A stretch of 50,194 bases of DNA from Candidatus Peribacteria bacterium (GTDB taxonomy: Bacteria > Patescibacteriota > Gracilibacteria > Peribacterales > Peribacteraceae): contig CAINWJ010000010.1 of assembly GCA_903854455.1 (NCBI GenBank), positions 1-50,194 on the forward strand. Reading direction: 5' to 3'. Each line of letters opens with the position of its first letter. Position 1 is the stretch's first letter. The position numbers and the translations under genes are program-made. This document shows, piece after piece, positions 1-17,771 of the stretch. A model generated the notes under the pieces. That model worked only from the letters and a program-made list of their open reading frames with translations, did not search any database and was not told where the DNA came from.

Positions 1-1632
1 GACGAGCTCGCGTTTCTGGATCGTGTGTCGCCTGTGATTGGCGGCAAGAAATTATCGATCCCGCCGCCGACACTTTGTCCGGATGCCAGGCAGCAGCGCA
101 GGCTCACGTTCAGGAATGAGAGCACGTTCTACCACCGTGACTGCAGTCGCTGTGGCAAGCACATGATCTCACTCTATCCGGCGGATGCTCCGTGTCCGGT
201 CTACTGTGAGGCATGCTATTGGAATGGCACATGGGATCCCCTCGCATACGGCCGGGTGTTCGATCCGGCACAATCGTTCTTCGGGCAGTTCAATGAGCTC
301 CAGAAGACGGTTCCGCATCTCTACTTCTCCTCATCAGATTGCGAGAATAGCGAGTACTGCAATCATGCTGCGGGAATGAAGGACTGTTACCTCGTCCATG
401 GCTCCATGCATTCGCAGGACAGCTACTACGGAGTCCGGTACTTCCGCTGCCGCGATTGCTCGGACTGCCTCTTCATCAATGACTGCGAGCTCTGCTACGA
501 AGCGGTGAACTGCGACAACTGCTATGACCTGGCGTACGCATTTCACTGTCAGGATTGTCGCAGCAGCCGCTGGATCCGGCACTGTCACGGTTGTGACAAT
601 CTCCTGTTCTGCGTGAACCGCCGTCAGGCGCGGCATCAGATCCTGAACGTGCAGTATTCCGAGGAGGATTTTCAGCGACTCAGGAAGGAGATTCTTTCTT
701 CTCCGGACATATTGGCAATGCACATTGAACGGTACCGGGCACTGCTTCTGGCTTCGCCCGAGCCGTCCCGCATCGCCGATCAGGCTGAACAATCATCAGG
801 AAATTATCTTCGTCAGTGCAAGGATTGCCGATCCTGCTTCGATGTACAGAAGTGCCAGGATGTCACGTATGGGTACGACGTCGCGTCCATGGCTGACAGC
901 CGCGACATCTACTCGGTCTACGGTCCGGGCGAGCTCTGCTACGAGCTGTACTCGGCATCGATTGCCGTTCATCACACACTCTTCAGTCACGACTGCTGGC
1001 CGTGCGAGGATCTTCTGTACTGCGATCACTGCTTCGGCTGCAAGTACTGCTTCGGCTGTCTCGGGCTCCACAAGCATCAGTACTGCATTCTGAACAAGCA
1101 ATTCACGAAGGAGGAGTATGAACGATTGGTGCCGTTGATTGTTGATTCCATGAACAAGTTTGGCGAGTTCGGTGAATTCTTCCCTGCGCAGTGTTCACCG
1201 TTCGCGTACAACGAGACGTCAGCTCAGGAATACTTCCCGATGCCAATGGAAGAAGTGCTGAAGCATGGATGGCGGTGGCGCGATCAGATGGATGAGAAGC
1301 CGAAGGTCGAACGGACGATTCCCGCAACTCAATTGCCTGCATCCATTCAGCAGACGCCGGACGATATTCTCCATTGGGCAGTGGAATGCGAGGTCACGAA
1401 GCGCCCCTACAGGATTATCAAGCGTGAGCTGGAGTTCTACCGGAAAATGCAGATACCCGTGCCGCGCTTCCATCCCGATGAGCGACACAGGCGGCGGATG
1501 GCGATGCGCAATCCGCGCAAACTCTGGGATCGGACATGTGGGAAATGTGGGAAGGGGATCGCGACGACGTATTCGCCTGAGCGGCAGGAAAAGATTTACT
1601 GCGAGGAATGTTATCTGAAGGAGGTATACTGA
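1..1632 (+). CDS. Cys-rich zinc-ribbon/Cys-repeat protein, array paralog P1 (5' end cut by window edge)
   Basis: Frame 1 is open from base 1 (DELAFLDRVSPVIGGKK...) and aligns with residues about 17 onward of the other paralogs, so the ORF-track start at 25 is internal. The C-terminus ...RTCGKCGKGIATTYSPERQEKIYCEECYLKEVY is shared with P2-P8. Confidence 0.85.
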   Translation, partial: DELAFLDRVSPVIGGKKLSIPPPTLCPDARQQRRLTFRNESTFYHRDCSRCGKHMISLYPADAPCPVYCEACYWNGTWDPLAYGRVFDPAQSFFGQFNELQKTVPHLYFSSSDCENSEYCNHAAGMKDCYLVHGSMHSQDSYYGVRYFRCRDCSDCLFINDCELCYEAVNCDNCYDLAYAFHCQDCRSSRWIRHCHGCDNLLFCVNRRQARHQILNVQYSEEDFQRLRKEILSSPDILAMHIERYRALLLASPEPSRIADQAEQSSGNYLRQCKDCRSCFDVQKCQDVTYGYDVASMADSRDIYSVYGPGELCYELYSASIAVHHTLFSHDCWPCEDLLYCDHCFGCKYCFGCLGLHKHQYCILNKQFTKEEYERLVPLIVDSMNKFGEFGEFFPAQCSPFAYNETSAQEYFPMPMEEVLKHGWRWRDQMDEKPKVERTIPATQLPASIQQTPDDILHWAVECEVTKRPYRIIKRELEFYRKMQIPVPRFHPDERHRRRMAMRNPRKLWDRTCGKCGKGIATTYSPERQEKIYCEECYLKEVY

Positions 1633-1638
1633 CCTCCA

Positions 1639-3321
1639 ATGCAGCGATCTTGCCCCCTCTGCTCGGCCCCCTTCCAGATCACGGACGCGGATCTTGCGTT
1701 CTATGAAAAGGTGAGTCCAAGCTTCAAAGGCAAGAAGGAGCTGATCCCGCCGCCGACCTTGTGTCCGGATTGCCGCGTACAGCGGAGAATGGCATGGCGA
1801 AATGATCGGGTGTTCTATCATAGAAAGTGCGATCTCACCGGAACGGACATTCTCTCCATGTACGCTCCGGATGCGCGGTTTCCCGTCTACAAGCCGGAGG
1901 CATGGCATGGGGACGGATGGGATGATCTGGCACACGGCCGGGACTTTGATTTCTCCAGAACGTTCTTCGATCAGTGGGCTGACCTCCGCGACTGCTCGCC
2001 GCACTGGGCTATGGCACTCTCTAGCTGCGAGAACAGCGACTACTGTAACTACTGCACGGATGAAAAGAACTGCTACATGGATATTGCGGCAGAGCAGAAT
2101 GAGAACTGCTACTACGATCATTTTACGAAAACGTCGAAGGACTGCGTTGACAGTAATTTCGCTTACCACTCCACGCTCTGCTACGAGGTTATTCAGTGCT
2201 ACGGCTGCTACGGCTGCCGCTGGTCACAGTACCTGGAAAACTGCAGCGACTGCACGATGTGCTTCGACTGCAAGGGGTGCCGTCACTGCCTTCTCTGCAC
2301 GAACCAGCGCAACAAGGAATACTGCATCATGAATGAGCAAGTGACGAAGGAAGTCTATGAAGCGAGGTTGGAGGAGCTCCGGCTGTCATCGCATCAGGCA
2401 GTTGAACATCTGAAGACAGTGTGGAAGGACCGCCTGCTCAGCCAGGGCATATTTCGGGACATGTACCTCCTAAACTGCGAAGGATGTTCCGGTAACGACA
2501 TCCAGACATCCAAGAACTGCCTCTCGTGCTTCAATGCAGTTGACTGTGAGGACTGCTCGTACCTCTACGATATCCTCAATGCCAAGGACTGCGCGGACAT
2601 GAACTACTCACTCTACGATCCCGAAGCGGACTATGAAGTTATCTCGACGGTCGGCCTCAAGCACTCGGCGTTCTACCTTACCGGACCGTACAACTCCTAC
2701 TGCTTCTACTCCGAAATGCTCAAGAGTTGCAGCCATTGCTTTGGCTGTGTCGCCCTCAAAAAACGGCAGCACTGTATCCTCAACAAGCAGTACACGAAGG
2801 AGGAGTACGAGGAGCTGTTTCCGAGAATCATCCATCACATGCGCAAGGCGGGGGAGTGGGGCGAGTTCTTCCCCGTGGTTCTATCGCCGCACGGGTACAA
2901 CGAGACTGTGGCAATGGATCATTTCCCACTGACGAAGAGCCAGGCTAAGGAGCGTGGTTGGCGCTGGAAAGACCGCACCGAGGAGACGGCGAAGATAACG
3001 AAGATCATCCCAGCCACGCAATTACCGGATGCCATCCAGGATATTCCAGACGACATTCTCCATTGGGCCATCAACTGTGAGGTGACCGGAAAGCCCTACA
3101 AGATCATCAAGCAGGAACTTGAGTACTATCGACGCATGCAGATTCCGGTTCCCCGTCTCCATCCCGATGAACGACATCGACGAAGGGTGGTTCTCAGTAA
3201 TCCACGCAAGCTCTGGAATCGCACATGCGGGAAATGTCAGAGGCCGATTACGACCAGTTATTCATCGGAGAGACCGGAAAAAGTATTATGCGAGGCGTGC
3301 TATCTGAAGGAAGTGTACTGA
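1639..3321 (+). CDS. Cys-rich zinc-ribbon/Cys-repeat protein, array paralog P2
   Basis: 560-aa ORF. N-terminus is CPLCSAPFQITDADLAFYEKVSP..KKELIPPPTLCPDCRVQRR. There are two Cys-repeat blocks, each ending in a ..YCI(L/M)N.Q.TKE.YE motif. The C-terminal PYKIIKQELEYYRRMQIPVPRLHPDERHRRR..CGKC..CEACY is collinear with all the other paralogs. Confidence 0.9.
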   Translation: MQRSCPLCSAPFQITDADLAFYEKVSPSFKGKKELIPPPTLCPDCRVQRRMAWRNDRVFYHRKCDLTGTDILSMYAPDARFPVYKPEAWHGDGWDDLAHGRDFDFSRTFFDQWADLRDCSPHWAMALSSCENSDYCNYCTDEKNCYMDIAAEQNENCYYDHFTKTSKDCVDSNFAYHSTLCYEVIQCYGCYGCRWSQYLENCSDCTMCFDCKGCRHCLLCTNQRNKEYCIMNEQVTKEVYEARLEELRLSSHQAVEHLKTVWKDRLLSQGIFRDMYLLNCEGCSGNDIQTSKNCLSCFNAVDCEDCSYLYDILNAKDCADMNYSLYDPEADYEVISTVGLKHSAFYLTGPYNSYCFYSEMLKSCSHCFGCVALKKRQHCILNKQYTKEEYEELFPRIIHHMRKAGEWGEFFPVVLSPHGYNETVAMDHFPLTKSQAKERGWRWKDRTEETAKITKIIPATQLPDAIQDIPDDILHWAINCEVTGKPYKIIKQELEYYRRMQIPVPRLHPDERHRRRVVLSNPRKLWNRTCGKCQRPITTSYSSERPEKVLCEACYLKEVY

Positions 3322-3360
3322 AGAGAAAGGCTGTAGCGCGTGCTTATAGCGCGCGGTCAC

Positions 3361-3406
3361 GCGAGCTTCGAGCTCGCGATAGTGCTTGGCGGACGCAACG
3401 TCCGCC
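3361..3406 (+). terminator. two consecutive GC-rich hairpins downstream of P2 (possible terminator or REP-like, no T-tract)
   Basis: GCGAGCT-tcg-AGCTCGC at 3361-3377 and GGCGGACG-caa-CGTCCGCC at 3388-3406, read directly from the sequence. Confidence 0.3.
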
Positions 3407-3443
3407 CGACCGCAGGCCCGAGGCCAGCGCTACGCACTTGTGC

Positions 3444-3449
3444 TACAAT
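3444..3449 (+). promoter_or_regulatory. -10-like TACAAT 8 nt upstream of the trmB-like start (possible leaderless transcript)
   Basis: tgcTACAATcctccactATG. No purine-rich SD between the box and the ATG at 3458. Confidence 0.3.
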
Positions 3450-3457
3450 CCTCCACT

Positions 3458-4249
3458 ATGTTCCGCCGTCTCTCCGAGCTCCTCAGCCTGGCAGGTCTCA
3501 GTGACGATGAAGCACGGTTGTACCTACTGCTCCTGAAATCGGGCAATGCGAGTGCGCCTGAGCTTCAGGCGGCATCTTCAATGAATGTGATGACGGTCTA
3601 CCGCACACTCAAGCGTCTGGAAGATCGTGGTTTGCTCGCAGCATCACCGGTCAATCGCAAAGAGAAGATGTACAAGGCATTGTCTCTGAATGCATTGGTA
3701 AAGAAATTGGAATCGGATGAACGGAAGATTCGGAAATTGCAGGCGAATCTCCGGAAGATGACGCCGTTCCTCAGATATCTCCCAACGGAATCCGAGAAGA
3801 TTTCAGATGAGGATCCGGTTGAATTGCGCGAAGGGCTGGATGCGTTCCGCGAGGAGTATTTGAAGTTGCCCGATCTCTGTACATCGGAATTCCAGTGCCT
3901 GGGGTCCATGCAGAACTATTGGAGAATCGCCGGTATGTCAGACGAGGCACCGGAAGAGATAGGATTCAGGAACAAGCGCTTCAGAAGCGGCATCTTCTCG
4001 TTAACACTCAACACGCCGTCTCCTGAGGCTGAGGTCTTCGCCAAGCGTGATTCGCGTGAGCTTCGGCGGACCAGGATTACCGCTGCATTGCCTATCAAGC
4101 GCGATTACATGGCGTTCACCGACGACCGTGTTTGTCATTTCCTTTGTGATCCTGAGAATCCTCAAGTGATCATCTTCCGTCAGCCGGAGCTTCTGGCGAT
4201 GTACCGTCGACAGTTCCGTTCGATCTGGGATGCGGGAGTGGTGGCGTAG
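3458..4249 (+). CDS. TrmB-family winged-HTH transcriptional regulator (copy 1)
   Basis: MFRRLSELLSLAGLSDDEARLYLLLLKSGNASAPELQAASSMNVMTVYRTLKRLEDRGLL matches the TrmB N-terminal wHTH pattern. I use the ATG at 3458 rather than the ORF-track start at 3386, because the upstream part crosses the hairpin region. Confidence 0.8.
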   Translation: MFRRLSELLSLAGLSDDEARLYLLLLKSGNASAPELQAASSMNVMTVYRTLKRLEDRGLLAASPVNRKEKMYKALSLNALVKKLESDERKIRKLQANLRKMTPFLRYLPTESEKISDEDPVELREGLDAFREEYLKLPDLCTSEFQCLGSMQNYWRIAGMSDEAPEEIGFRNKRFRSGIFSLTLNTPSPEAEVFAKRDSRELRRTRITAALPIKRDYMAFTDDRVCHFLCDPENPQVIIFRQPELLAMYRRQFRSIWDAGVVA

Positions 4250-4333
4250 GTATCTTGGTTTCCGTTCGATTCGTTGGTTCAAATATTTCCTTGATCGTGG
4301 TTGCCTGCAATTCCTTTCCACCCTCTCCTTAGT

Positions 4334-4368: not shown

Positions 4369-4487
4369 AATGCCTCATTCGGGCATTATTATCACATCAT
4401 CCTGAGATAATTCATTTCCCTCTTTTGGCTTGAGGCTAAGCTTTTCAATTTTTCTAGGAGGCTAGTTGCCTCGCTCTCTCAAAAGCC

Positions 4488-4499: not shown

Positions 4500-6182
4500 G
4501 TGCCCTCATGTGCTCTCTGCCAATCGGCATTCGAAGTTTCCAAGGAGGATCTCGCTTTCCTCGAAAAAATCTCTCCTGATTTCGCAGGCAAGAAGGAGCT
4601 CATCCCGCCTCCGATCTTTTGCCCCGACTGCCGTCAGCAGCGTCGGCTCCTCTGGCGCAATGAATATTGTTTGTATCGACGGACGTGTGATGGTTGCAAG
4701 AAATCGATCATCTCCCAGTACTCCACAGACAAGCCGTTCACCGTGTATTGCCACGAGTGCTGGTGGTCCGACAGGTGGGATCCTCTGAGTCACGGACAAC
4801 CGTTCGATTTCAATCGAACATTTTTTGATCAATTCCGGGCATTGCAACTGAAGGTTCCCAGGATGGCGCTCAATGCCATCTCCAACGAGAACTCGGAGTA
4901 TGTGCACCTCTCCGGATACTGCAAGAACTGCTACCTCCTCTTCGCTGCGGAGTTCGATGAAGACTGTCTCTACGGCAACCAAGTCATCAAATCTCTCGGC
5001 TGCATGGACGCGCTCGATTGCTTCGAGTCCCGGTACTGTTACGAGGTCACGGACGTCGAAAAGTCTCACGATCTCCTGTTTTCCAGCAACTGCAGCAACT
5101 GCTCGGGGTCCATGTTCCTCTTCGACTGCAAAGGATGTTCGGACTGCCTGCTCTCGACGAATCTCCGCAAGAAGACGAACGTCATCCGAAACAAGCAGTG
5201 CAGCCCGGAGGAATTCAGGCGCGAGCGGGAAGCGTTGATGATGCGGATTGCGAAGGGGGAGTTATCGCAGATCAAGGACGAATTTAAGCAGCTGAAGGCG
5301 CAGAGTATTCACAGGTCGCAGGAAGCCGTGAACTGTGAAGCCTCGACTGGCGATTACCTCAAGAACTGCAAGAACGTGCGTCACTGTTTCGATCTCTCCT
5401 ACGGTGAAGACAGTGCATTCGTTTACACCGGTTTCAAGGTGAAGGATCTGATGGACGTGTGCCACACGACGGAGGCGGAGCTGGGGTATGAGGGGATCAG
5501 CTTCGGCTATGGATCGTACAATGCCATCTGCACGCATGGCTCCTGGAGCGGCAAGAACCTCCTCTACTGCGATACGGCACAGGCCGGCTGCTCCGATCTC
5601 TTCGGCTGCGTGATGATGAAGCAGCAGAAGCACTGCATTCTGAATAAGCAGTATTCCAGGGAGGAGTACGAGCAGCTTGTTGCGAAGATTATTACTCACA
5701 TGCGCGCCTCCGGTGAATTCGGATTATTCTTTGCGCCAGAATGTGCGCCGTTTGGGTACAACGAGACGACGGCGAATATTTATTTTCCAATGACGCGGGA
5801 AGCAGCGGTTGCCAAAGGATTCCCCTGGAAAGATGGCGAGGAGGAGATGCCGGCGGTAGCCAAGGTGATCAACGCCGTCGATCTTCCTTCAGACATTCGC
5901 GAAGTCCCGGACGACATCCTCGGCTGGGCCGTCACCTGCGAAGCGACCAAGCGACCATTTAGAGTCGTCAAGCAGGAGCTGCAGTTCTACCGTGACCATG
6001 GTTTGCCCATTCCACACTTTCATCCTGACGAGCGGCACCGGCGGAGGATGGCGCTTAGGAATCCGCGGAAGGTGTGGTCACGGACATGCATGAAGTGTCA
6101 GAAGGACATCGAAACAACCTATTCTCCAGAGAGGAAGGAGAAGGTGTTTTGTGAGGAGTGCTATCTGGGGGAAGTGTATTGA
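4500..6182 (+). CDS. Cys-rich zinc-ribbon/Cys-repeat protein, array paralog P3 (GTG start)
   Basis: (M)PSCALCQSAFEVSKEDLAFLEKISPDFAGKKELIPPPIFCPDCRQQRR... is collinear with the family. The N-terminal module keeps all four distal Cys (RTCDGCKK...VYCHECWW). Confidence 0.9.
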   Translation: MPSCALCQSAFEVSKEDLAFLEKISPDFAGKKELIPPPIFCPDCRQQRRLLWRNEYCLYRRTCDGCKKSIISQYSTDKPFTVYCHECWWSDRWDPLSHGQPFDFNRTFFDQFRALQLKVPRMALNAISNENSEYVHLSGYCKNCYLLFAAEFDEDCLYGNQVIKSLGCMDALDCFESRYCYEVTDVEKSHDLLFSSNCSNCSGSMFLFDCKGCSDCLLSTNLRKKTNVIRNKQCSPEEFRREREALMMRIAKGELSQIKDEFKQLKAQSIHRSQEAVNCEASTGDYLKNCKNVRHCFDLSYGEDSAFVYTGFKVKDLMDVCHTTEAELGYEGISFGYGSYNAICTHGSWSGKNLLYCDTAQAGCSDLFGCVMMKQQKHCILNKQYSREEYEQLVAKIITHMRASGEFGLFFAPECAPFGYNETTANIYFPMTREAAVAKGFPWKDGEEEMPAVAKVINAVDLPSDIREVPDDILGWAVTCEATKRPFRVVKQELQFYRDHGLPIPHFHPDERHRRRMALRNPRKVWSRTCMKCQKDIETTYSPERKEKVFCEECYLGEVY

Positions 6183-6271: not shown

Positions 6272-7558
6272 ATGGTTACTATCAAAAAAATAAATAAGAA
6301 GCACGCACGGCATGTCATCGAGCAATCGATGGCTGCTTTGGGTTTGGAGATGAACATGAAAACTGATCCGGCGATTATTGAGAGTCTCCTTCGCGAGATG
6401 AGGCTTGATGACTTTAAAACAGACTTTGCTCCAATGAAGAAATTTTTCGCAGACGCTCTTGCTAAACCGCAAAGCTTACGACCGATGTTTGAAAGTATTA
6501 AGCAGGGGATCGTGAATAAGCATCCTGCAATTGTTGAGTTTGCTGAACTGGCTCTGTCGAAGAAATGGTTTGCATCTTCTGCTCATATTCAGAGAGCGGC
6601 TCATGTCGCTTATGTTCTCGAGGCGATGACTGCAGCGATGTGCAATAGCCACAAGTTCTTCCTTGAAGCTGAAGATTATTTACGTGCGCAAGAAGTGATG
6701 TGTGGCTTAGATCATGAGCACTTATTACGTTCATTCTTGAGCATGCAACGCGTGACTCATAGCGTTTTTGAAACCATGAAGGCCCTATCTCTTGACCCTG
6801 CAATGATTATTCCGAGAACCCGTTGCGGTTTGGAGAATGCAAGAATAGGCAAGGTGCAGCTCCGTGAACTCAGCAGGAAAGAAAAGCTTAATTTTGTTGA
6901 GCGCAAGCTATTATCGACTGCCGAAAAAAATGACCTTGAACATTCACTTAAGTTAGTTGGTATCAATTTGTTTGAGGCAGGTATCACCGAATACAAAAAA
7001 GGATTTCAGGATAATGCCTTTTGTGCACATGCTCTAAATGAAGTCATCCAGAAAACTCCTCCCGCTGTTCTATTTAAAGCTCGTCATATCATACCTCTTT
7101 ACTCTTCGCAGTCTTTCTATGAGACTCTCTGCACGAGCGATAATCATTTTCCCGTGTTCGGTTTTAGTCAGGATTGGATGAGTGTGTACGTCACTTGGAA
7201 TTTAGCATTTGTGTTGGGCGATCTTGATGAATTGGATTTACTCATTCCGAAATTACTTATTCCGTCAGTTCTCAATGCAAAAAGTGAGCATTTTCTCGGT
7301 GCAAGAGGCATTGCTCTTTGGCTCTCCATTAACAATTTCCTATTCAGATTGAGGGATCATGCAGGCACGGTTTCAGGACCGGAGAACAAACAAGAGATGG
7401 CAAATGCTTGGGGTGCAATTAACAAAAAATATGCCACCGCCTTTATGCAAAATGAGACACATGAAACACGACAGCATTTCTTAAGTGAATTTCACCACTT
7501 CTTCTCCTTTCCCGTTTTCCATTTTTTAAAACTTCTGGGCGATTTCGCAATTCGTTGA
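6272..7558 (+). CDS. hypothetical protein (428 aa) in an AT-rich island, no motif recognised
   Basis: Long ORF in a stretch that is visibly more AT-rich than the flanks. No antisense competitor of similar length. No family recognised by eye. Confidence 0.6.
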   Translation: MVTIKKINKKHARHVIEQSMAALGLEMNMKTDPAIIESLLREMRLDDFKTDFAPMKKFFADALAKPQSLRPMFESIKQGIVNKHPAIVEFAELALSKKWFASSAHIQRAAHVAYVLEAMTAAMCNSHKFFLEAEDYLRAQEVMCGLDHEHLLRSFLSMQRVTHSVFETMKALSLDPAMIIPRTRCGLENARIGKVQLRELSRKEKLNFVERKLLSTAEKNDLEHSLKLVGINLFEAGITEYKKGFQDNAFCAHALNEVIQKTPPAVLFKARHIIPLYSSQSFYETLCTSDNHFPVFGFSQDWMSVYVTWNLAFVLGDLDELDLLIPKLLIPSVLNAKSEHFLGARGIALWLSINNFLFRLRDHAGTVSGPENKQEMANAWGAINKKYATAFMQNETHETRQHFLSEFHHFFSFPVFHFLKLLGDFAIR

Positions 7559-7573
7559 ACAATATTTTTCCGT

Positions 7574-7975
7574 TCAGCGGAATTTATCATACGGGAAGAA
7601 TTTTTTTTCATGCTCTTCTCCAAGAACGTGCGTTGAATGCTTAATTGCACAGGAGTAAACCTCCGTTTGATTGGTAACAGCTTTTGTCCATGCGGTGAGT
7701 GCGTTGCCGTATCCGCAGTACACACATGAAGCTTTTTGCCATATTGTTAGCTTATGTAGATCCCAACGATCTAAAACCCAATAATCTTTAAACCGAATTT
7801 TAGGAATGTCGTAGATAGAAAAATAAATCAATTGATAGAGGTAAAAGTGCAGATGAATGATGGGTGCGAGAAGCAGCAAACTCCAAATAGCAATGACGCC
7901 GACAAATTGGAGAAATATATTCCTCTTATGGAGCGTTTTGTGACGTGCCAAGACGACGAAGCGTTCGTACAGCAT
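7574..7975 (-). CDS. small hypothetical membrane protein with a C-terminal Cys/His motif
   Basis: 133-aa ORF with a hydrophobic N-terminal half (FLQFVGVIAIWSLLLLAPIIHLHFYLYQLIYFSIY) followed by CVYCGYGNAL...YSCAIKH. It lies in the same AT-rich island, convergent with 6272-7558. Confidence 0.5.
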   Translation of the reverse strand: MLYERFVVLARHKTLHKRNIFLQFVGVIAIWSLLLLAPIIHLHFYLYQLIYFSIYDIPKIRFKDYWVLDRWDLHKLTIWQKASCVYCGYGNALTAWTKAVTNQTEVYSCAIKHSTHVLGEEHEKKFFPYDKFR

Positions 7976-8033
7976 CGTAATATAGTAGCAGAAATCCTGA
8001 TTTATCTCAAGCGTTCTGGTCTAGCCGGAGCCA

Positions 8034-9004: not shown

Positions 9005-10690
9005 ATGAGCCCCAGTTGTTTGAAGTGTCGAGAGAAATTTTCAGTGAGTGACGATGATATATCATTCTTGGAAACCATCTCTCCGGTCGTCGGTGGACGA
9101 AAAGAACTCCTTCCTCCTCCGACACTTTGTCCGGATTGTCGTCAGCAGCGCAGGCTCGCTTTCCGGAATGAGCGTCGACTGTACGCCCGCAAGTGCGATC
9201 TCACAGGTAAGCAGATCATTTCATCGTACTCCGCGGACAAGTCGTTCAAGGTCTACGATCAGGCGGAATGGTGGTCCGATGCGTGGGATCCGCTTTCGTA
9301 CGGCAGGTCATTCGATTTCTCACAATCGTTTTTCGAACAATTTACCGCATTGCAGCGGGAGGTTCCCCGGGTCAGTGTCATCAATACGAATAGCGAGAAT
9401 TCGGTGTACACGAACTACACAGCCAATAATAAGAACTGCTACCTGATCTTCAGCAACTCCTACGGTCACAACGAAGATTGCTTCTACGGGACATGCCTCA
9501 GTAAGTCGGTGAGTTGCGTCGACAGCATCAACATTTTCAATTGCCAACTTTGTTTTGACTGCATCGATTGCACGGATTGCTACTCGCTCCTCTCCAGCCG
9601 GAACTGCAATGAGTGTCAGGAGTCATTCTTCCTGTCCGATTGCCGACGCTGCAAAAATTGCATCGGATGCAAGGGGTTGCGCGACAAGCAGTATTGCGTT
9701 CAGAACAAGCAGTACACCAAGGATGAGTATACGAAGCTCCTGGAGCAATCCGCCACACATACCCATGCCGGATATGAAGGCATTCGTAGCTTCTTCGATG
9801 CATTCGACAAGAGCACCCCGCACTTATTCAGTCGTCAGAAAAATTGTGAGCAATGTACGGGTGATTATCTTCAAAGTTCACGGGAATGCATTCAGTGTTT
9901 CGATACCAATCAGAGTGAGCACTGTCGCTACGTGCAGTATTCGGTCAGCGATGATTTCAATTGTTGTGATGCGTCCTATCTGGTCGACAGTACCAATTGC
10001 TACGAAAATCTGAGTCTCGTGCAGTGTTCCGATTGTCACTTCACTGATCTTACCTGGTGGGGTGTCCATGGCGTGCTGTACTCCGAACTCTGTTTCAATT
10101 CCACACATGATTGTTTTGGCTGCATCGGTCTCCGTGGCAAGCAGTACTGCATCCTCAACCAGCAGTACACGAAGGAGGAGTATGAGCAACTCGTACCGAA
10201 AATTATCCAACACATGCGGAAAACGAAGGAGTGGGGTGAATTTTTCCCCATTAACCTCTCTCCCTTTGGGTATAACGAAACAATTGCTCATGAGTATGTT
10301 CCATTATCTGAAGCAGTCGTAAAAAAACATGGATGGAACTGGCATGTTGAAGAAGAGGAGCAGAACCAATACCTCGGTCCGGTGTATGCAATCCCCGACG
10401 GTATTCGGGATGTGTCGGATGATATCGTGAAGCACATCCTCCGTTGTTCCGTTTCCGGCAAGCCGTACAAGATCATCCCGCAGGAATTGAAGTTTTATCG
10501 CCAGATGAATATCCCGATTCCGCGGAAATGTCCGGATCAGCGGCACAAGGAGCGGATGGCGCTCAGGAACCCGAGGAAGCTCTGGGACCGGAAGTGCGGT
10601 AAGTGCCAGAAGCAGATTGCGACGAGCTACAGTCCGGAGAGGTCGGGAATCGTGTATTGCGAAGAGTGTTATCTGGCTTCTGTGTATTAA
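9005..10690 (+). CDS. Cys-rich zinc-ribbon/Cys-repeat protein, array paralog P4
   Basis: 561 aa. I counted 41 Cys by hand. The N-terminal module is the degenerate variant (RKCDLTGKQIIS...KVYDQAEWW). The C-terminal module is PRKCPDQRHKERMALRNPRKLWDRKCGKCQKQIATSYSPERSGIVYCEECY. Confidence 0.9.
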   Translation: MSPSCLKCREKFSVSDDDISFLETISPVVGGRKELLPPPTLCPDCRQQRRLAFRNERRLYARKCDLTGKQIISSYSADKSFKVYDQAEWWSDAWDPLSYGRSFDFSQSFFEQFTALQREVPRVSVINTNSENSVYTNYTANNKNCYLIFSNSYGHNEDCFYGTCLSKSVSCVDSINIFNCQLCFDCIDCTDCYSLLSSRNCNECQESFFLSDCRRCKNCIGCKGLRDKQYCVQNKQYTKDEYTKLLEQSATHTHAGYEGIRSFFDAFDKSTPHLFSRQKNCEQCTGDYLQSSRECIQCFDTNQSEHCRYVQYSVSDDFNCCDASYLVDSTNCYENLSLVQCSDCHFTDLTWWGVHGVLYSELCFNSTHDCFGCIGLRGKQYCILNQQYTKEEYEQLVPKIIQHMRKTKEWGEFFPINLSPFGYNETIAHEYVPLSEAVVKKHGWNWHVEEEEQNQYLGPVYAIPDGIRDVSDDIVKHILRCSVSGKPYKIIPQELKFYRQMNIPIPRKCPDQRHKERMALRNPRKLWDRKCGKCQKQIATSYSPERSGIVYCEECYLASVY

Positions 10691-10763: not shown

Positions 10764-12419
10764 ATGCCCACCTGCCTCCATTGCTCATCGGCATTCAATA
10801 TTACTTCCGAGGACCAGCGCTTCCTGGATCTCTTCGCAGTTCCTGCACCGAAGAGCTGTCCGACCTGCAGATTGCAGCGCCGCCTCTGCGAGCGGAATAC
10901 GCGGAGTCTCTACTATCGAAAATGCGATCTGACCGGGAAGCAGATCATCGCGCAGTACAATCCCGAGTGCCCGTTTCCGGTCTACGGCGTGGATGCATTC
11001 ATGGGGGACGGTTGGAGCGGATTGACGTATGGCCGCGACGTCGATTTCAACCGACCGTTCTTCCATCAGTTCAAAGAATTGACGGCTGTGGTCCCGCATC
11101 TTGCATTATTCAATACGCCGGGAACGCTGGAAAACAGCGACTACAATAACTGCACCGGCTACATCAAGAACTGCTACCTGATCTCTGAGAGCGACATCTG
11201 TGAGGATTGTTACTACTCGAATTTGCTCAAGAAGTGCAAGAACGTCGTTGATTGTTCCGTCTGCTACGAGTGTGAGCGATGTTATGAATGCATCGATTGC
11301 GTCGGATGCCAGATGCTCCGTGGCAGTCAGGATTGTCAGCAGTGCAGTGACAGCTTCTTCCTCTTCAATTGTCAGGGTTGTAGCAACTGCATCGGTTGCA
11401 TCAACCAGCGGCACAAGCAGTACATGATCTGGAATGAGCAGTACTCGAAAGAGGATTACGAACGGAAGAAGGCGGAACTTGGATTGAATGGGCGATCAGG
11501 ATTGAAATCGGTACTGCAACGTGCGGAAGCATTCTTCGAGTCACATCCGCACCGTGCGTTGTTGATTGAGCGAGCGGAAAGCTGCACCGGCGATCGCATC
11601 TACGATTCAAAAAATGCCGTGAACTGCTTCGACGTGAAGGACATCGAAGATTGCCGGCACTGCCAGAAAATTTCCTTGAGCTGCAAGTCCTGCATGGACT
11701 TCAATTCGTGGGGGCAGAATAGCGAGCTTGTGTACCAGTGTTCCGCTTGTGGCGACCGCACTTACAATGCGAAATTTTGCTCGACATGCATCACAGTTAC
11801 GAACGCGGAATATTCATTCGAATGCTTCCACTGCAAGGACATCTTCGGATGTGTGGGTCTGAAAGGTCAGCAGTACTGTATTTTCAATAAACAGTATTCC
11901 AAGGATGAGTACGAGGCATTGCGCTCAAAGCTGATTGATCACATGCGTCAACTCGGCGAGTACGGCGAATATTTCCCGATGGATCTCTGCCCCTTTGCCT
12001 ACAATGAATCCTTCGCGCCGGATCTCTTTCCGATGACGAAAGAAGAAGTAATCAAGTGTGGATGGAGATGGTATGAAGATCATGAGAGTGACGAGCGGTA
12101 CATGGGTGCGCACATTGATCTACCGGAGACGATTGCCGATGTGAAGAAGGGCGTATCGAAGCAAATTCTGCTCTGCGAAGTCTCCAAGAAGCCGTACAAG
12201 ATTATTCCCCAGGAGCTAGCGTTCTACCGATCGATGGACATTCCTGCTCCGGCACTTTGTCCTGATGAACGTCACCGGCGGCGGATGGCGAAGCGAAATC
12301 CCTACAGACTGTGGCAGAGGAATTGTGGGAAGTGTTCGAAAGAGATTGAAACGACATACTCGCCGGAGAGACCTGAGCAGATTTTCTGCGATGATTGTTA
12401 CCTAACAACTGTTTATTGA
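10764..12419 (+). CDS. Cys-rich zinc-ribbon/Cys-repeat protein, array paralog P5
   Basis: MPTCLHCSSAFNITSEDQRFLDLF... starts at the ATG at 10764. The ORF-track start at 10617 overlaps P4 and translates the palindromic repeats (ETPRRGVS). Collinear with the family. Confidence 0.88.
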   Translation: MPTCLHCSSAFNITSEDQRFLDLFAVPAPKSCPTCRLQRRLCERNTRSLYYRKCDLTGKQIIAQYNPECPFPVYGVDAFMGDGWSGLTYGRDVDFNRPFFHQFKELTAVVPHLALFNTPGTLENSDYNNCTGYIKNCYLISESDICEDCYYSNLLKKCKNVVDCSVCYECERCYECIDCVGCQMLRGSQDCQQCSDSFFLFNCQGCSNCIGCINQRHKQYMIWNEQYSKEDYERKKAELGLNGRSGLKSVLQRAEAFFESHPHRALLIERAESCTGDRIYDSKNAVNCFDVKDIEDCRHCQKISLSCKSCMDFNSWGQNSELVYQCSACGDRTYNAKFCSTCITVTNAEYSFECFHCKDIFGCVGLKGQQYCIFNKQYSKDEYEALRSKLIDHMRQLGEYGEYFPMDLCPFAYNESFAPDLFPMTKEEVIKCGWRWYEDHESDERYMGAHIDLPETIADVKKGVSKQILLCEVSKKPYKIIPQELAFYRSMDIPAPALCPDERHRRRMAKRNPYRLWQRNCGKCSKEIETTYSPERPEQIFCDDCYLTTVY

Positions 12420-12462: not shown

Positions 12463-14133
12463 ATGACCATTTGCACTCATTGCTCATCGGCATTCGGAAT
12501 CACGGATCAGGATCTGAAATTCTACGACGACGTATCGCCGGTGTTTGCCGGGAAGAAAGAATTGATCCCGCCGCCAACTCTCTGTCCATCCTGCCGCATG
12601 CAACGACGACTGATGTTCCGGAATGATCTCTGTTTGTATCACCGCAAATCGGATCTCACCGGCAAGGCGATGATTTCCATGTACGCACAGGACAAACCGT
12701 ACAAGGTTTACGACCAGGACGAGTGGTGGAGCGATCAGTGGGATGAGCTCTCGTATGGTCGTGACTTCGATTTCTCGCGGACGTTCACCGAGCAGTTTAG
12801 GGAGCTCAACCTGGCAGTTCCGCATCAGGGGCTCTTCACGACGAACGCGGAGAATAGCTACTACACCAACCATTCACTCAACACGAAGAACTGCTACCTG
12901 ATCGCCGGTGCGACGAATCTGGAGGATTGCCTCTTCGGCCGCTTCGTTATCGGTGGCAACGATGTGGTCGACGGCTTGTCGCTCTATGGGTGCAAGTGGT
13001 GTTACGAAGGCATCGCTTCTCAACAGTGCTACCAGTGCATGTTTTTCCGCCATTCGCGCGATTGCAGCAGCTGCCTCGTGATCGACGATTGCCAGTCCTG
13101 CAAGAATTGCTGCATGTGCTTTGGGCTCAAGAGCAAAGAGTATTGTTATTTGAATGAGCAGCTGACCAAAGATGAGTATGAGCAGCGTATTCAGAAGCAT
13201 TTGCCGCTGACGCCGGATGGCATCAATGTGATGCGCAGGCAATTGTCTGAACTTTCGATCAAGTTGCCGCACCGCGCACTTCATGTATTCAGCAGCGAAG
13301 ATTGCACCGGTGATATGGTGTTCAACAGTCAGCAATGCGAAGATTGTTATGACTGTACAGACTCTCAGGATTGCAAGTATGTGAGCAATGCGCCGAAAAG
13401 CAAAAACAGTCAGGATGCGAATTACGCCGCGCCGGATGGCGTGGAGTGGTGCTACAACGTCAACTCGAGTGTCGGCTCACAGCGCGTCATGGGGGTGTTC
13501 CTCTGCTGGTACGGTTCCGATGAGTACTATGTTCGCGAGTGTCACCGTAGCTCGAATCTTTTTGGTTGCATCAGTATGCGACACAAGGAGTACTGCATCT
13601 TAAACAAGCAGTATTCCAAAGAAGAATATGAAACATTAGTGCCGAAGATCATTGAGCACATGCGGAAAACAGGGGAGTGGGGCGATTACCTCCATCCGAG
13701 TCTTTCGACTATGGGGTACAACGAAACGCTTGCTCAGGAATATTTTCCGATTATGAAAGAGGAAGCGATTGCGAACGGTTGGCAGTGGCACGACGAAGAG
13801 GATTCCAAGGAGCAGTACCTGGGTCCCGATCATAAGATTCCGGAGAGCATTGCGGATGTTCCCGATGACATCACCAAGCAGATTCTGCGGTGCGAGGTCA
13901 CCGGCAAACCGTACAAGGTCATCCCGCAGGAGCTGAAGTTTTACCGTTCCATGGGGATCCCGATTCCGCGGAAGTGTCCCGAGCAGCGGCACAAGGAACG
14001 TCTGGCAATGCGGAATCCGAGGAGATTGTGGAAGCGGGAATGTGCAAAATGTCAGAAAGAAATAGAGACGACGTACCATCCTTCGCGACCTGAAACTGTT
14101 TATTGTGAATCATGTTATCTCAACAATTTATGA
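12463..14133 (+). CDS. Cys-rich zinc-ribbon/Cys-repeat protein, array paralog P6
   Basis: 556 aa, collinear with the family. The N-terminal module is the most degenerate (RKSDLTGKAMIS...KVYDQDEWW). Confidence 0.9.
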   Translation: MTICTHCSSAFGITDQDLKFYDDVSPVFAGKKELIPPPTLCPSCRMQRRLMFRNDLCLYHRKSDLTGKAMISMYAQDKPYKVYDQDEWWSDQWDELSYGRDFDFSRTFTEQFRELNLAVPHQGLFTTNAENSYYTNHSLNTKNCYLIAGATNLEDCLFGRFVIGGNDVVDGLSLYGCKWCYEGIASQQCYQCMFFRHSRDCSSCLVIDDCQSCKNCCMCFGLKSKEYCYLNEQLTKDEYEQRIQKHLPLTPDGINVMRRQLSELSIKLPHRALHVFSSEDCTGDMVFNSQQCEDCYDCTDSQDCKYVSNAPKSKNSQDANYAAPDGVEWCYNVNSSVGSQRVMGVFLCWYGSDEYYVRECHRSSNLFGCISMRHKEYCILNKQYSKEEYETLVPKIIEHMRKTGEWGDYLHPSLSTMGYNETLAQEYFPIMKEEAIANGWQWHDEEDSKEQYLGPDHKIPESIADVPDDITKQILRCEVTGKPYKVIPQELKFYRSMGIPIPRKCPEQRHKERLAMRNPRRLWKRECAKCQKEIETTYHPSRPETVYCESCYLNNL

Positions 14134-14165
14134 CAACTATAGTCAGGTCGCTTCGGACGGCAGGC

Positions 14166-14225
14166 GCACCCGAGAGGACGGAGAGTGTGTATTGCGAACA
14201 ATGTTATTTGGCCTCCGTCTATTAA
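14166..14225 (+). pseudogene. fossil 3' end (last ~19 codons plus stop) of a Cys-rich paralog
   Basis: gca ccc gag agg acg gag agt gtg tat tgc gaa caa tgt tat ttg gcc tcc gtc tat taa translates to APERTESVYCEQCYLASVY*. This is nearly the same as the real P7 end (SPERPESVYCEQCYLAAVY*, 15940-15998). It lies 30 nt after the P6 stop with no gene body attached. Confidence 0.75.
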
Positions 14226-14227
14226 TG

Positions 14228-14292
14228 CTGCGGGGCAGCAGCCCCGCGTTTATCTCCATTCATTATCTCGAAGACGCCCCGGCGGGGCGTCT
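14228..14292. repeat. junction repeat unit: GCGGGGC-agca-GCCCCGC hairpin, spacer, then AGACGCCCCGGCGGGGCGTCT palindrome
   Basis: Near-identical to 16034-16098. Confidence 0.8.
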
Positions 14293-14309
14293 CTACACCA
14301 CCCAACGTA

Positions 14310-15998
14310 ATGCCCACCTGCCCTCACTGCCAATCGGCGTTCGAGATTGCCAAAGACGATCTCGCGTTCTATGCAAAGGTCTCACCGATCTTCAATGGAA
14401 AGAAGGAGCTGATTCCGCCGCCGACGTTGTGTCCGGACTGCAGAATGCAGAAGCGCATGTTGTGGAGGAACGAGCGCAGCATTCATCGGTCTTCCTGTCG
14501 TATCTGCAAGCGATCAATGATATCGCAATATGTCCCCGAGTCGCCACATGTTGCGGTTTGCGCAGACTGTTTCTGGTCCAAACGGTGCGATCCACTCGCC
14601 GCCGGACGTCCCTTCGATCAGTCGCATTCGTTTTTCTCCCAGTTCCTGGAATTGCTTCAGACTGCGCCGCTTGTCGCGCTGATCAACACAAATGCACAGG
14701 CCTCGGAATACTGCCATCGGATCTACAACGGCCGGAACAACTACCTTTCATTCATCGCGCTCTATGAACCGGAGAACCTGCTTCACACCTACCACACCGT
14801 CGCGTGCAAAGACTGCACGGATGTCAGCGTCAATCATCACTGTGAACTCTGCTACGAGACCGTGGATGCCGATGACTCCTACAATTGCCGGTACTCGAGA
14901 CGTATCCGCAACTGCCGCGATTCCGCTTTTCTGGAAGATTGCATCGGGTGCAGCAATTGCATCGGGTGCAAGAACCTCCACCAGCGTCAGAACTGTCTTT
15001 TTAATGAGCAGAGGACTCCCGCTGACATTGAGGCATTCAGGGCATCCATGGAGATGGAAACCGTATCCGGCATTAGCTCTCTCCGGGGGCAGGCGGAAGA
15101 ATTCTTCCGGATGCTCCCGAACCGACCAGCTTTGAGGGTAAATTGCGAGAGCGTCTCGGGGGCATACGTCACCAATTGCAAGAATTGTACGGACGTGTAC
15201 GACCTGTTCGAGTGTGAGGAGCTGCGACATTCTTCGCAAGCGGAACGAAGCCATCATTGCATGGATTGCTACGGTATGAACTCCGCGTCCTTCTGCTATG
15301 AAGGCATTACGTACGGCGTGGACGGATGCCAGAACCTCCTCTTCTCTGCCGCGACTTTGAGTGGATGCCACAACCTTCTGTACTGCTACGATTGTTACGC
15401 CGGGACGCATGATTGTTTCGGATGTGTGGGGCTCATCAAACAGAGCTACTGCATCCTCAACAAGCAGTACTCCAAGGAAGAATATGAGGAATTGGTACCG
15501 AGGATTATTGAACGGATGCGACAGGCCGGTGAGTGGGGACAATTTTTCCCCGTGCACCTGAGTCCGTTTGCCTACAACGAATCCGTTGCGCAGGACTATT
15601 TTCCGCTTACGAAGGAAGATGCTGGAAAGTTCGGTTGGCAGTGGCGGGATCAAAAAGATGATATTCCGAAAGTCGAACGGATTGTTTCCGGTGCGCAGTT
15701 GCCAGATTCGATCGACGAGACTCCGGACGATATTCTCAATTGGGCCATCGAGTGTGAGGTGACGAAGCGTCCGTTCAAAATTATCCGTCAGGAACTCGAT
15801 TTCCATCGGAGGATGAGGCTACCTCTTCCCCGGCTGCATCCTGATGAACGTTATCGGAGAAGAATGGCACAGAGAAATCCACGGCACCTCTGGAAGCGGA
15901 AATGCGGGAAGTGCGGTACGGAGATCGAGACGACGTATTCCCCGGAACGGCCGGAGAGCGTGTATTGCGAACAATGTTATCTTGCTGCGGTTTATTGA
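14310..15998 (+). CDS. Cys-rich zinc-ribbon/Cys-repeat protein, array paralog P7
   Basis: 562 aa. The N-terminal module has all four distal Cys (SSCRICKRSMIS...VAVCADCFW). The C-terminal module is of the HPDERYRRR type. Confidence 0.9.
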   Translation: MPTCPHCQSAFEIAKDDLAFYAKVSPIFNGKKELIPPPTLCPDCRMQKRMLWRNERSIHRSSCRICKRSMISQYVPESPHVAVCADCFWSKRCDPLAAGRPFDQSHSFFSQFLELLQTAPLVALINTNAQASEYCHRIYNGRNNYLSFIALYEPENLLHTYHTVACKDCTDVSVNHHCELCYETVDADDSYNCRYSRRIRNCRDSAFLEDCIGCSNCIGCKNLHQRQNCLFNEQRTPADIEAFRASMEMETVSGISSLRGQAEEFFRMLPNRPALRVNCESVSGAYVTNCKNCTDVYDLFECEELRHSSQAERSHHCMDCYGMNSASFCYEGITYGVDGCQNLLFSAATLSGCHNLLYCYDCYAGTHDCFGCVGLIKQSYCILNKQYSKEEYEELVPRIIERMRQAGEWGQFFPVHLSPFAYNESVAQDYFPLTKEDAGKFGWQWRDQKDDIPKVERIVSGAQLPDSIDETPDDILNWAIECEVTKRPFKIIRQELDFHRRMRLPLPRLHPDERYRRRMAQRNPRHLWKRKCGKCGTEIETTYSPERPESVYCEQCYLAAVY

Positions 15999-16005
15999 TT
16001 TTTTT

Positions 16006-16098
16006 GTAGAGACGCCCGATCGGGCGTCTCTACCTGCGGGGCAGCAGCCCCGCGTTTATCTTCATTCATTATCTCGAAGACGCCCCGGCGGGGCGTCT
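16006..16098. repeat. junction repeat unit: palindrome GTAGAGACGCCCGATCGGGCGTCTCTAC, GCGGGGC-agca-GCCCCGC hairpin, and second palindrome AGACGCCCCGGCGGGGCGTCT
   Basis: Elements at 16006-16033, 16034-16054 and 16078-16098, read directly. Confidence 0.8.
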
Positions 16099-16115
16099 CT
16101 ACACCACCCAACGTT

Positions 16116-17771
16116 ATGCCCACCTGCCCCCACTGCCAATCGGCATTCGAGATCACGCCTGATGATCTTGCATTTTATGAGAAGGTATCACCAATATTTA
16201 ATGGTAAGAAAGAATTGATTCCACCGCCGACGCTGTGTCCGTCTTGTCGTCAGCAGCGACGACTGGCATTCCGAAATGAACGCTGCCTCTACCATCGTAA
16301 ATGTGATTTGACTGGCAGACAGATGGTCACGATGTACTCGCCGGACAAGCAGTACAAAATTTACGATCAGGAGGCATGGTGGAGCGACAACTGGGATCCG
16401 CTGGCTTCCGGTCGTGAGTACGATCCAGCCAAATCGTTCTTTGCCCAGTTCGATGAACTCTTCCACAGCGCACCGCGGATCAGTCTCATCAACATGGAGC
16501 ACGAGAACGCGGAGTACTGCAATTTCGCGCTCAAGAACAAGAATGCGTATCTGCTCTTCACGTCGGCAGAGTGTGAAGATTCTTTCTATATGAACCGGTC
16601 ATGGAGAAGTAAGAACTGTGCGGATTGCTCCAGTCTGGAAGATGGTGAGCTGTGTTACGAGGTCATCAATTCCGATCATTGCTACAACTGTCAGTACCTC
16701 CAAAATTGTGCCAACTGCTCGGATTGTTACCTCGGATACAACCTTCACGGGTGCAAGAATTGCTTTGCGTGCTACGGTTTGACGAATGCGTCCTACTGCA
16801 TCGGCAACAAGAAGTTTGAGAAGGAGGAATATGAGCGGACCGTTGCCTTGCTCAGGCAGGATCTTCGGTCGGTGCGGAATAATTTCGAGGAGCAGAAGCG
16901 GACGCAGCCGCGGAAGTACATGGACTGCATCAACGCTGACGGTTGCACAGGAAATGCGATCAGTCATTCCAAGCACGCATTGAATTGTTTCGAAGTGATG
17001 AACGTGGAGGACTGCAACTATGCCTGCAATGCGACATTCATGAAGGATGCGTACGACATCGACAACGATGATCATTCCGAACTCGTCTACGAAGCAGTCG
17101 GGAGCGAAACCAATTCCATGCATGCGTTCAACGACATCTGTTGGTTCAACCGTGAAGTGTTGTATTCCAGCCTCTGCTTCCGCTGCAAGAACTGTTTCGG
17201 GTGCATCGGGCTCAGGCACAAGCAATACTGCATCCTCAATAAGCAGTACACGAAAGAGGAGTACGAGAAACTGGTGCCGAAGATCATTGAACGCATGAGG
17301 AAGGATAAGGAGTGGGGTGAATTTTTCCCGGTCAGCATTTCTCCGTTCGGCTACAACGAGACGATGGCGCAGGAGTTAAATCCACTGACGAAGGACCAGG
17401 TTCTGGCACTGGGATGGAAGTGGTTTGAAGATGATAATTCGAAGGATCAGTACCTGGGTCCGTTGTACGAAATCCCCGATGCCATCGCCGATGTTCCCGA
17501 TGACATCACGAAGCAGATTTTGCGCTGCTCCGTCACCGGCAAGCCGTACAAAATCATCCCGCAGGAATTGAAATTCTATCGGGACCTGAACATTCCGATC
17601 CCGCGGAAATGCCCTGATCAAAGGCACAAGGAGCGCATCGCCTTGCGGAATCCGAGGAAGTTGTGGGATCGGCAGTGTGCCAAGTGCCGGAAGGCGATTG
17701 TAACCAGTTATTCTCCGGAGAGACCGGAGCAAGTGTTGTGTGAGGAGTGTTATTTGAGAGAAGTGTACTAA
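16116..17771 (+). CDS. Cys-rich zinc-ribbon/Cys-repeat protein, array paralog P8
   Basis: 551 aa. The first ~13 codons are nearly identical in DNA to P7. The N-terminal module is degenerate (RKCDLTGRQMVT...KIYDQEAWW). The C-terminal module is of the PRKCPDQRHKER type. Confidence 0.9.
   Translation: MPTCPHCQSAFEITPDDLAFYEKVSPIFNGKKELIPPPTLCPSCRQQRRLAFRNERCLYHRKCDLTGRQMVTMYSPDKQYKIYDQEAWWSDNWDPLASGREYDPAKSFFAQFDELFHSAPRISLINMEHENAEYCNFALKNKNAYLLFTSAECEDSFYMNRSWRSKNCADCSSLEDGELCYEVINSDHCYNCQYLQNCANCSDCYLGYNLHGCKNCFACYGLTNASYCIGNKKFEKEEYERTVALLRQDLRSVRNNFEEQKRTQPRKYMDCINADGCTGNAISHSKHALNCFEVMNVEDCNYACNATFMKDAYDIDNDDHSELVYEAVGSETNSMHAFNDICWFNREVLYSSLCFRCKNCFGCIGLRHKQYCILNKQYTKEEYEKLVPKIIERMRKDKEWGEFFPVSISPFGYNETMAQELNPLTKDQVLALGWKWFEDDNSKDQYLGPLYEIPDAIADVPDDITKQILRCSVTGKPYKIIPQELKFYRDLNIPIPRKCPDQRHKERIALRNPRKLWDRQCAKCRKAIVTSYSPERPEQVLCEECYLREVY

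Follow-up and report, generated by a model that had tools for sequence, protein, structure and literature searches.

What does it mean when tandem copies of one cysteine-rich protein keep all four ligands of a putative zinc finger in some members and lose most of them together in others? The first 17.8 kb of a 50,194-nucleotide stretch from a Candidatus Peribacteria bacterium (contig CAINWJ010000010.1; the whole stretch is called here the window) raise this question, as they encode eight full-length paralogs of a single family, P1 to P8, all on the + strand, each ~555 residues long and alignable end to end at 39-51% pairwise identity. A first-pass annotation of the same DNA had already counted eight paralogous copies, a count borne out by eight full-length open reading frames (ORFs), and had read the two forms of the finger as two functional states instead of decay. 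Taken as a whole, the explanation we consider probable is that of an internally duplicated family of candidate phyla radiation (CPR) bacteria with dispensable zinc sites, a conserved zinc-free variant of one N-terminal finger, and an old array whose members recombine.

The domains of each protein follow the order A-B-B'-linker-A' and not A-B-A-B, with an acidic linker, an arrangement in which the ~555-residue protein would have been built by internal duplication. The homology of N- and C-terminal modules proposed earlier was found at E=3.8e-19 with hhalign (columns 1-100 against 480-572, eight copies only), and at E=7.8e-30 with a probability of 99.8% for family-wide profiles of several hundred homologs, and the duplication of the centre is equally clear, the central blocks B1 and B2 matching at E=5.9e-33 over 142 columns in the eight copies. 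The A module spans ~90 residues and carries two treble-clef-type Cys4 sites, which makes four sites per protein; only one per module had been counted before, the first (CxxC...CPxC) having been missed. This first site is composed of a CxxC knuckle and a CPxC with which an Arg-rich helix begins, and occupies columns 4, 7, 41 and 44 in the N-module (N1) and 478, 481, 506 and 509 in the C-module (C1). The second site has a CxxC-x17-CxxC spacing and is found at columns 63, 66, 84 and 87 (N2) and 528, 531, 549 and 552 (C2). An AlphaFold2 model of P3 (predicted local distance difference test, pLDDT, 91.7; predicted template modelling score, pTM, 0.89) shows at both sites the layout of a treble clef, in which a knuckle and a beta-hairpin are combined with ligands at the N-terminus of a helix. 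Judging from such motifs, the Cys4 sites most likely bind zinc in a structural role. The paralogs are acidic overall with a strongly basic C-module (net charge +5 to +12), and neither a signal peptide nor a membrane segment was found in them.

Within the window the four sites behave very differently from each other. C2 is Cys4 in all eight copies and N1 in P2 to P8; in P1, the two first positions of N1 fall off the window and the rest (76-87) reads CPDA, with the fourth ligand changed from Cys to Ala. N2 is Cys4 in P1, P3 and P7, which keep the CxxC...CxxC already noticed in their N-modules, and Cys-poor in P2, P4, P5, P6 and P8. The claim that the latter five had replaced all four ligands jointly applies strictly to P6 (S,T,D,E), as P2, P4, P5 and P8 retain the first Cys and have replaced three ligands. 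As for C1, it is incomplete in each of the eight copies (C,T/S,H/C,E/Q). The split between H in P1, P2, P3 and P7 and C in P4, P5, P6 and P8 is indeed seen in the alignment, at the motif xPD(E/Q)RH, although the residue is not the first ligand, as had been thought, but the third ligand of C1, a site complete in none of the copies, where its second and fourth partners are invariably T/S and E/Q. By motif count, three copies would thus hold three complete Cys4 sites (P1 two only) and five copies two.

The all-or-none character of the loss becomes evident in a larger set of 502 unique near-full-length homologs aligned to one profile, which was gathered from 78 genome loci plus the window (249 sequences), from a word-indexed search with P8 (120) and from representatives of 50%-identity clusters (150). 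Among 498 homologs, N2 is CCCC in 104, Cxxx in 311 and xxxx in 81, and just two sequences carry two or three Cys, when ~217 such intermediates would be expected under independence of the columns. The pattern is alike in each of the three separately gathered subsets; the predicted joint loss holds across the family, for three positions and not for four. C1 follows the same rule: it is CCCC in 82 homologs, and Cys stands at columns 481 and 509 together in 83, at just one of them in 3 and at neither in 414. N2 and C1 are each complete in about one fifth of the family, while N1 (CCCC in 410 of the 451 homologs ungapped at the site) and C2 (CCCC in 485) are nearly always kept. All sixteen Cys are present in 27 homologs, in agreement with an ancestral protein that had the full set. 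Once a structural Cys4 site has lost one ligand, it is expected to lose the remaining ones jointly. In this line, the individual structural zinc sites of the family would be dispensable, and a site that stopped binding metal would see its remaining ligands replaced together.

Two further types of members were noticed in other loci. A divergent subfamily, ~30% identical to the window copies and present in several Peribacteraceae arrays (Table 1), has lost N1 and C1 (--HA / CTHE / DAYR) and kept C2. In loci that read UGA as a sense codon (code 25, Gracilibacteria-like), short members spanning only profile columns ~69-512, and therefore without most of both finger modules, alternate with full-length copies (Table 1).

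The Cys-poor N2 is not a random assortment of residues. Its knuckle has the consensus C (79%) or S (18%), D, L, T (65%) or S (33%), G (88%) and K; T or S occupies the second ligand position in 98% of the sequences, D or E is found at the third, and W at column 88 in 95%. With the ligand columns omitted, the finger of Cys-poor forms has a conservation of 0.483 versus 0.410 in the rest of the protein (ratio 1.18), the corresponding values for Cys4 forms being 0.373 and 0.394 (ratio 0.95). Moreover, an AlphaFold2 model of P8 obtained with an alignment of Cys-poor forms only (pLDDT 85.2, pTM 0.86) gave for the N-module the same secondary structure as in P3, strand-strand-strand-helix, residues 59-88, with pLDDT 93-96. 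The intact ORFs, a conserved motif of its own, the higher conservation of the finger and the same predicted fold altogether support that the Cys-poor N2 is a stable, apparently zinc-free variant and not a product of decay. Of the original proposal of two functional states instead of decay, the rejection of decay stands, and the two states hold as structural states only. The replacement would have converged on C/S-D-L-T/S-G-K, a knuckle without zinc in which D/E takes the place of the third ligand and which may keep the fold and stay under purifying selection.

In sharp contrast with the finger sites, the Cys residues of the central blocks come and go one by one. Each B block is a narrow beta-solenoid of ~140-150 residues with 12-residue coils, a repeat also recovered by DSSP in the models, where the positions pointing inwards, every third residue, are Cys or small residues. 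The Cys columns of B1 and B2 follow a strict period of 3 with occupancies of 15-95%, the replacements being S, V, L, A or G. The presence of Cys is correlated at offset 12 (phi +0.14), anticorrelated at offset 6 (-0.21) and negative also at 18, and no pair of solenoid Cys exceeds a phi of 0.48. Disulfide or metal pairing within the solenoids was rejected on this covariation: the solenoid Cys are individually replaceable core residues in stacked ladders, neither paired ligands nor disulfides.

No close relative of this solenoid emerged from the structural searches. Foldseek found no real structural relative of the P3 and P8 models in the PDB (TM at most 0.12), nor of the P3 model among viral models. 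The best Foldseek matches of both models were left-handed beta-helix proteins (LpxD, GlmU, LpxA, gamma-carbonic anhydrase), which are also beta-solenoids but align with TM-scores of 0.06-0.12 and a root mean square deviation of ~18 A, and whose coil period is 18 instead of 12; no match to Pfam Hexapep was obtained in the paralogs at E<=0.1. A sequence profile search against the PDB returned LIM-like matches to one finger and a non-significant match of B1 (E=1.2) to the Tenebrio molitor antifreeze protein (1EZG). The latter likewise forms a narrow solenoid whose coils have 12 residues, with inward Cys/Ser/Ala at each third position, although in our family Cys at i and i+6 are anticorrelated, so that a within-coil disulfide is not indicated, and there is no signal peptide. 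Scans of the paralogs against Pfam, NCBIfam, PHROGs and PADLOC gave sub-threshold finger matches only, plus one weak match of the solenoid to phrog_15341 (E=4e-5), whose function is unassigned there.

How often N2 changed state has a direct bearing on whether its co-variation says anything about selection. At >=60% identity (average linkage) the state is uniform in 64 of the 65 multi-member clusters, and the Cys-poor state goes with a YxGP linker signature and a C at column 506 in 151 of 163 members throughout the family. Both facts would be expected if one or a few ancient losses had simply been passed on to large subfamilies, in which case the co-variation would be uninformative. Such pure inheritance is nevertheless unlikely, given that 8 of the 66 clusters at >=50% identity are mixed, that the nearest neighbour is Cys-poor for 28 of the 104 Cys4 forms (with 73% identity in the closest of these pairs), that a Cys-poor cluster encloses one Cys4 form, and that only 2 of 498 sequences are intermediates despite several switches. 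With the finger columns left out of a neighbour-joining tree, parsimony required 44 changes on it, versus 95 with shuffled states. We therefore favour an N2 state that appears to be largely inherited, to have changed on 8 occasions or more, perhaps both ways, and to have left almost no surviving intermediates. As for decay, that loss of ligands would normally destroy a zinc finger, and that other loci contain a few frameshifted fragments of family members, could be taken to mean that the five Cys-poor copies are degenerating duplicates heading to pseudogenes; yet they are all intact full-length ORFs, the orthologs of P5, P6 and P8 in another genome are 85-87% identical, the finger region is conserved above the rest of the protein and the Cys-poor fold is confidently predicted, so that we regard this possibility as extremely improbable.

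Some observations do weigh against the zinc-free variant as we describe it. The nested Cys4 form, P0040, lies among seven Cys-poor forms (P0025, P0028, P0029, P0031, P0035, P0038 and P0039) at 63-74% identity, which share an almost identical finger; this suggests a regain of three Cys, the simplest route being gene conversion with a paralog as donor, and the switch may accordingly not be one-way. The neighbour-joining tree is crude, and its 44 switches are unreliable, with only the lower bound of ~8 holding. Retention of the first Cys of the lost site (column 63) in 79% of Cys-poor forms is not explained by a simple release from constraint. Metal binding is deduced from motifs only, and the family matches the CxxC-x17-CxxC models below their curated cutoffs.

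Two other explanations concern the use of metal. The coexistence of both forms in the window (3 Cys4 and 5 Cys-poor) and in 17 of the 28 arrays with four or more copies, together with the conservation of the Cys-poor form, would fit a zinc-sparing role in which Cys-poor copies are kept for expression at low zinc, as known for the Zur-controlled, zinc-independent paralogs of ribosomal proteins (PMC5912738). N1 and C2 remain Cys4 in the Cys-poor copies, however, which would save one zinc in three, the paralogs are 50-60% different over their whole length and hence no like-for-like substitutes, and the window holds no Zur gene and no gene for zinc transport or uptake, all of which makes zinc sparing a doubtful explanation. 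Still less probable, in our opinion, are redox or iron-sulfur sites with two forms differing in redox sensing. These proteins do contain 6-8% Cys, CxxC motifs can hold iron and CPR bacteria are mostly anaerobes, but the layout is that of a treble clef with x17 spacing, a domain type that binds zinc in small purified Methanosarcina proteins as measured by inductively coupled plasma mass spectrometry (PMC12704099); besides, the solenoid Cys are individually replaceable and unpaired, and a ferredoxin pattern, CxxCxxC...CP together with conserved partners, is absent.

The structural zinc sites with a zinc-free alternative that we prefer have a well-known counterpart. In the work of Makarova et al. 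2001, 'Two C or not two C', the zinc-ribbon ribosomal proteins L31, L33, L36 and S14 were reportedly described in C+ and C- forms. As in our case, a small structural Cys4 finger also exists without its Cys and with the fold preserved, the ligands disappear jointly, and both forms can be paralogs in one genome. Differently from those proteins, the finger is here one of four in a 555-residue protein, in most cases with its first Cys retained, the two other complete sites persist and the protein would therefore never be zinc-free, the paralogs differ along their whole length, and there is no known link to zinc regulation. By analogy, the on/off behaviour of N2 would be a fresh instance of a known phenomenon, the zinc-free variants of structural Cys4 fingers.

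Regarding the finger itself, the exact spacing of the CxxC-x17-CxxC domain models (TIGR04272, PF23477 and PF13451) is that of the second site of both modules; the spacing of TIGR04272 / PF23477 is present in C2 of all eight copies and in N2 of P1, P3 and P7. The scores remain below the curated cutoffs (at most 23 versus 27 bits for Pfam PF23477, and at most 19.5 versus 36 for NCBIfam TIGR04272), with no match to these two models in P2 and P5; such matches, which fall on C2, are the only ones that the databases gave for these proteins. In our family, moreover, the domain makes up the latter half of a bigger module, with two sites and an Arg-rich helix, that the database models do not cover. LIM domains also combine two consecutive treble-clef-like Cys-rich fingers, and C2 gave weak CRP/LIM matches; nevertheless, a single finger aligns (13.9-16.1 versus 22.9 bits, profile positions 28-58 only), spacing and ligand pattern differ, and a long Arg-rich helix separates the two sites of our family. 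The cysteine-rich proteins of Candidatus Peribacter riflensis (PMC4736985) were discarded as relatives, as they are large extracellular pappalysin-like proteins of a different family.

Table 1. Coordinates of the paralogs, their modules and the associated genes in the window, and of selected features in other loci. Ligands are listed in the order of the four site positions.
Feature	Position	Strand	N2 finger	C1 ligands	Other modules and remarks
P1	1-1632	+	Intact Cys4; 142-216 (C,C,C,C)	C,T,H,E	5' end cut by window edge; N-module 1-231; B1 268-690; B2 715-1140; linker 1141-1371; C-module 1372-1629; C2 1537-1611, Cys4
P2	1639-3321	+	Cys-poor, CDLTGT...VYKPEA; 1828-1902 (C,T,K,A)	C,T,H,E	N-module 1645-1917; B1 1954-2376; B2 2404-2829; linker 2830-3060; C-module 3061-3318; N1 and C2 Cys4
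P3	4500-6182	+	Intact, CDGC...CHEC; 4686-4760	C,T,H,E	N-module 4503-4775; B1 4812-5234; B2 5265-5690; linker 5691-5921; C-module 5922-6179; modelled by AlphaFold2
P4	9005-10690	+	Cys-poor, CDLTGK...VYDQAE; 9194-9268 (C,T,D,E)	C,S,C,Q	B1 9320-9748; B2 9776-10204; C-module 10430-10687; type II C-terminus (YLGP)
P5	10764-12419	+	Cys-poor, CDLTGK...VYGVDA; 10923-10997 (C,T,G,A)	C,S,C,E	Start set at the ATG at 10764, in register with the other copies; stop-to-stop ORF from 10617
P6	12463-14133	+	Without any Cys, SDLTGK...VYDQDE; 12649-12723 (S,T,D,E)	C,T,C,Q	
P7	14310-15998	+	Intact, CRIC...CADC; 14496-14570	C,T,H,E	
P8	16116-17771	+	Cys-poor, CDLTGR...IYDQEA; 16302-16376 (C,T,D,A)	C,T,C,Q	Second copy modelled by AlphaFold2
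TrmB-like winged-helix regulator, inside array	3386-4249	+			Pfam TrmB E=4e-12
TrmB-like regulator, head-to-head with P4	8034-8825	-			Pfam TrmB E=9e-9
TrmB-like regulator, directly past array	18247-19005	+			Pfam TrmB E=6e-17
Soluble VirD4/TraD/HerA-like P-loop ATPase	19127-21370	+			Pfam T4SS-DNA_transf, TrwB_AAD_bind, TraG-D_C, DUF87; ATPase also in loci L005, L011, L014, L022, L025, L028, L036, L039, L050, L056, L070
Divergent subfamily, other loci	L003 7985-9646; L004 12010-13764; L037 7551-9449; L045 8272-9942				
Short members, other loci	L057 11636-13129, 14861-16330, 18035-19456; L058; L071 10370-11854; L075 2-1525; L078 3812-5278				

The arrangement of the copies along the array turned out to be simpler than two interleaved clades. 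In the N-module and the solenoids, all eight proteins lie at much the same distance from each other (29-44% identity in B1 and B2), and the split into two groups is carried by the C-terminal ~150 residues, with identities of 54-65% and 62-69% within the groups and 45-56% between them; as clades, the two groups are weak. Because YxGP, the column-506 C and the Cys-poor finger co-occur family-wide, P4, P6 and P8, and loosely P5, belong to a real subfamily, the other copies being a mixed remainder. Along the DNA there are two blocks, P1-P3 and P4-P8, and the reported interleaving comes down to P7, the sole type I copy inside the second block. The conclusion that the array did not arise by simple serial duplication is reasonable, as the paralogs are old and their slots turn over. 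Orthologs in other genomes are 61-87% identical versus 39-51% between paralogs, which points to old paralogs and an old array. In the closest syntenic array (L043), the regulator gene at 8034-8825 has a counterpart with 84% DNA identity, and P5 (87% at the protein level), P6 (85%) and also P8 have orthologs in the range of 85-87%. The slots of P4 and P7 in that locus (6672-8459 and 14300-16003) are filled by copies merely 40-50% identical, that of P7 by a non-orthologous Cys-poor copy (40%), and one extra copy lies between the counterparts of P5 and P6. Such differences argue for arrays that turn over by gain and replacement, probably by recombination.

The window also contains, at 6272-7558 (+), a 428-residue ORF with a G+C content of 42% versus ~53% in the surroundings, which has no match in Pfam, NCBIfam, PHROG or PADLOC and, among the loci compared, a homolog only in the syntenic locus L043. 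The remainder of the window is ordinary chromosome, with MBOAT, glycosyltransferase and mevalonate pathway genes, and the nearest homologs of the paralogs come from Candidatus Peribacteraceae assemblies, which fits a Peribacteraceae genome.

The family is very large. Among the 8,000 candidate clusters at 90% identity that were scored, the ceiling of the search, more than 7,985 matched, and at 50% identity there are 5,254 clusters (2,361 at E<=1e-30), coming from Peregrinibacteria, Peribacteraceae, Gracilibacteria, Abawacabacteria and related groups, so that the family appears restricted to CPR bacteria. One locus labelled Candidatus Micrarchaeota archaeon (L024, DUGF01000091.1) carries a typical member and is probably a misbinned CPR contig. 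The function names in the sources are all hypothetical or uncharacterized, except one Joint Genome Institute label, CxxC-x17-CxxC domain; the family is without a Pfam or NCBIfam model and without a solved relative, and a literature search on it or on its neighbourhood found nothing. Tandem arrays are common, with up to 9-10 copies per 20 kb stretch, and stand-alone finger modules sought in the loci were only contig-edge or frameshifted fragments. Since tblastn gave no family match in phage and plasmid collections, the array is not cargo of the mobile elements in those sets.

Two kinds of neighbouring genes recur beside the arrays. Of 79 sources, 38 contain TrmB-like genes, with relatives in or beside arrays at other loci; in 31 of the 79 a minus-strand TrmB-like gene, of any of three types, ends within 1.2 kb upstream of a paralog, and relatives of the one at 8034-8825 are found in 34 sources. 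The three regulators of the window have diverged from each other. Because such genes lie head-to-head upstream of paralogs, the TrmB-like regulators probably control the array. Of the 19 sources that carry the ATPase located past the array, 16 have it downstream of a paralog, at no more than 1.5 kb and in the same orientation, Gracilibacteria and Abawacabacteria loci among them. The ATPase matches PHROG_5156 at E=5e-68 and the NCBIfam VirD4-like CD1115 model at E=3e-17, below cutoff, and no membrane segment was found in it.

Our best guess is that the paralogs are cytoplasmic binding proteins, whose basic finger modules might dock on one shared partner, be it nucleic acid or the VirD4-like ATPase encoded next to the array, while the fast-diverging solenoids would give each paralog a specificity of its own. 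A bolder proposal, which we put forward as a long shot, is that arrays, TrmB-like regulators and VirD4/TraD-like ATPase form one CPR-specific system, with dozens of diversified solenoid proteins as clients or adaptors of the ATPase. If this were true, the paralogs would be cargo or target-recognition subunits, for example in DNA handling, defence or the host-cell interaction of epibiotic bacteria, the two-finger modules would be a common docking element tuned by a zinc-on/zinc-off finger, and we would be facing a new kind of multi-paralog recognition system, based on a combination of folds without a solved relative.

The on/off behaviour of zinc fingers is in itself already known; what had gone undescribed is this very large CPR family. 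Genomes of Peregrinibacteria and Gracilibacteria measure ~1.2-1.4 Mb, and yet tens of kilobases in them are taken up by its tandem copies. The flip of N2 would offer a natural and well-sampled case of a structural zinc site replaced without loss of the fold, and the role of the family may best be approached through its link with a regulator and a VirD4-like ATPase.

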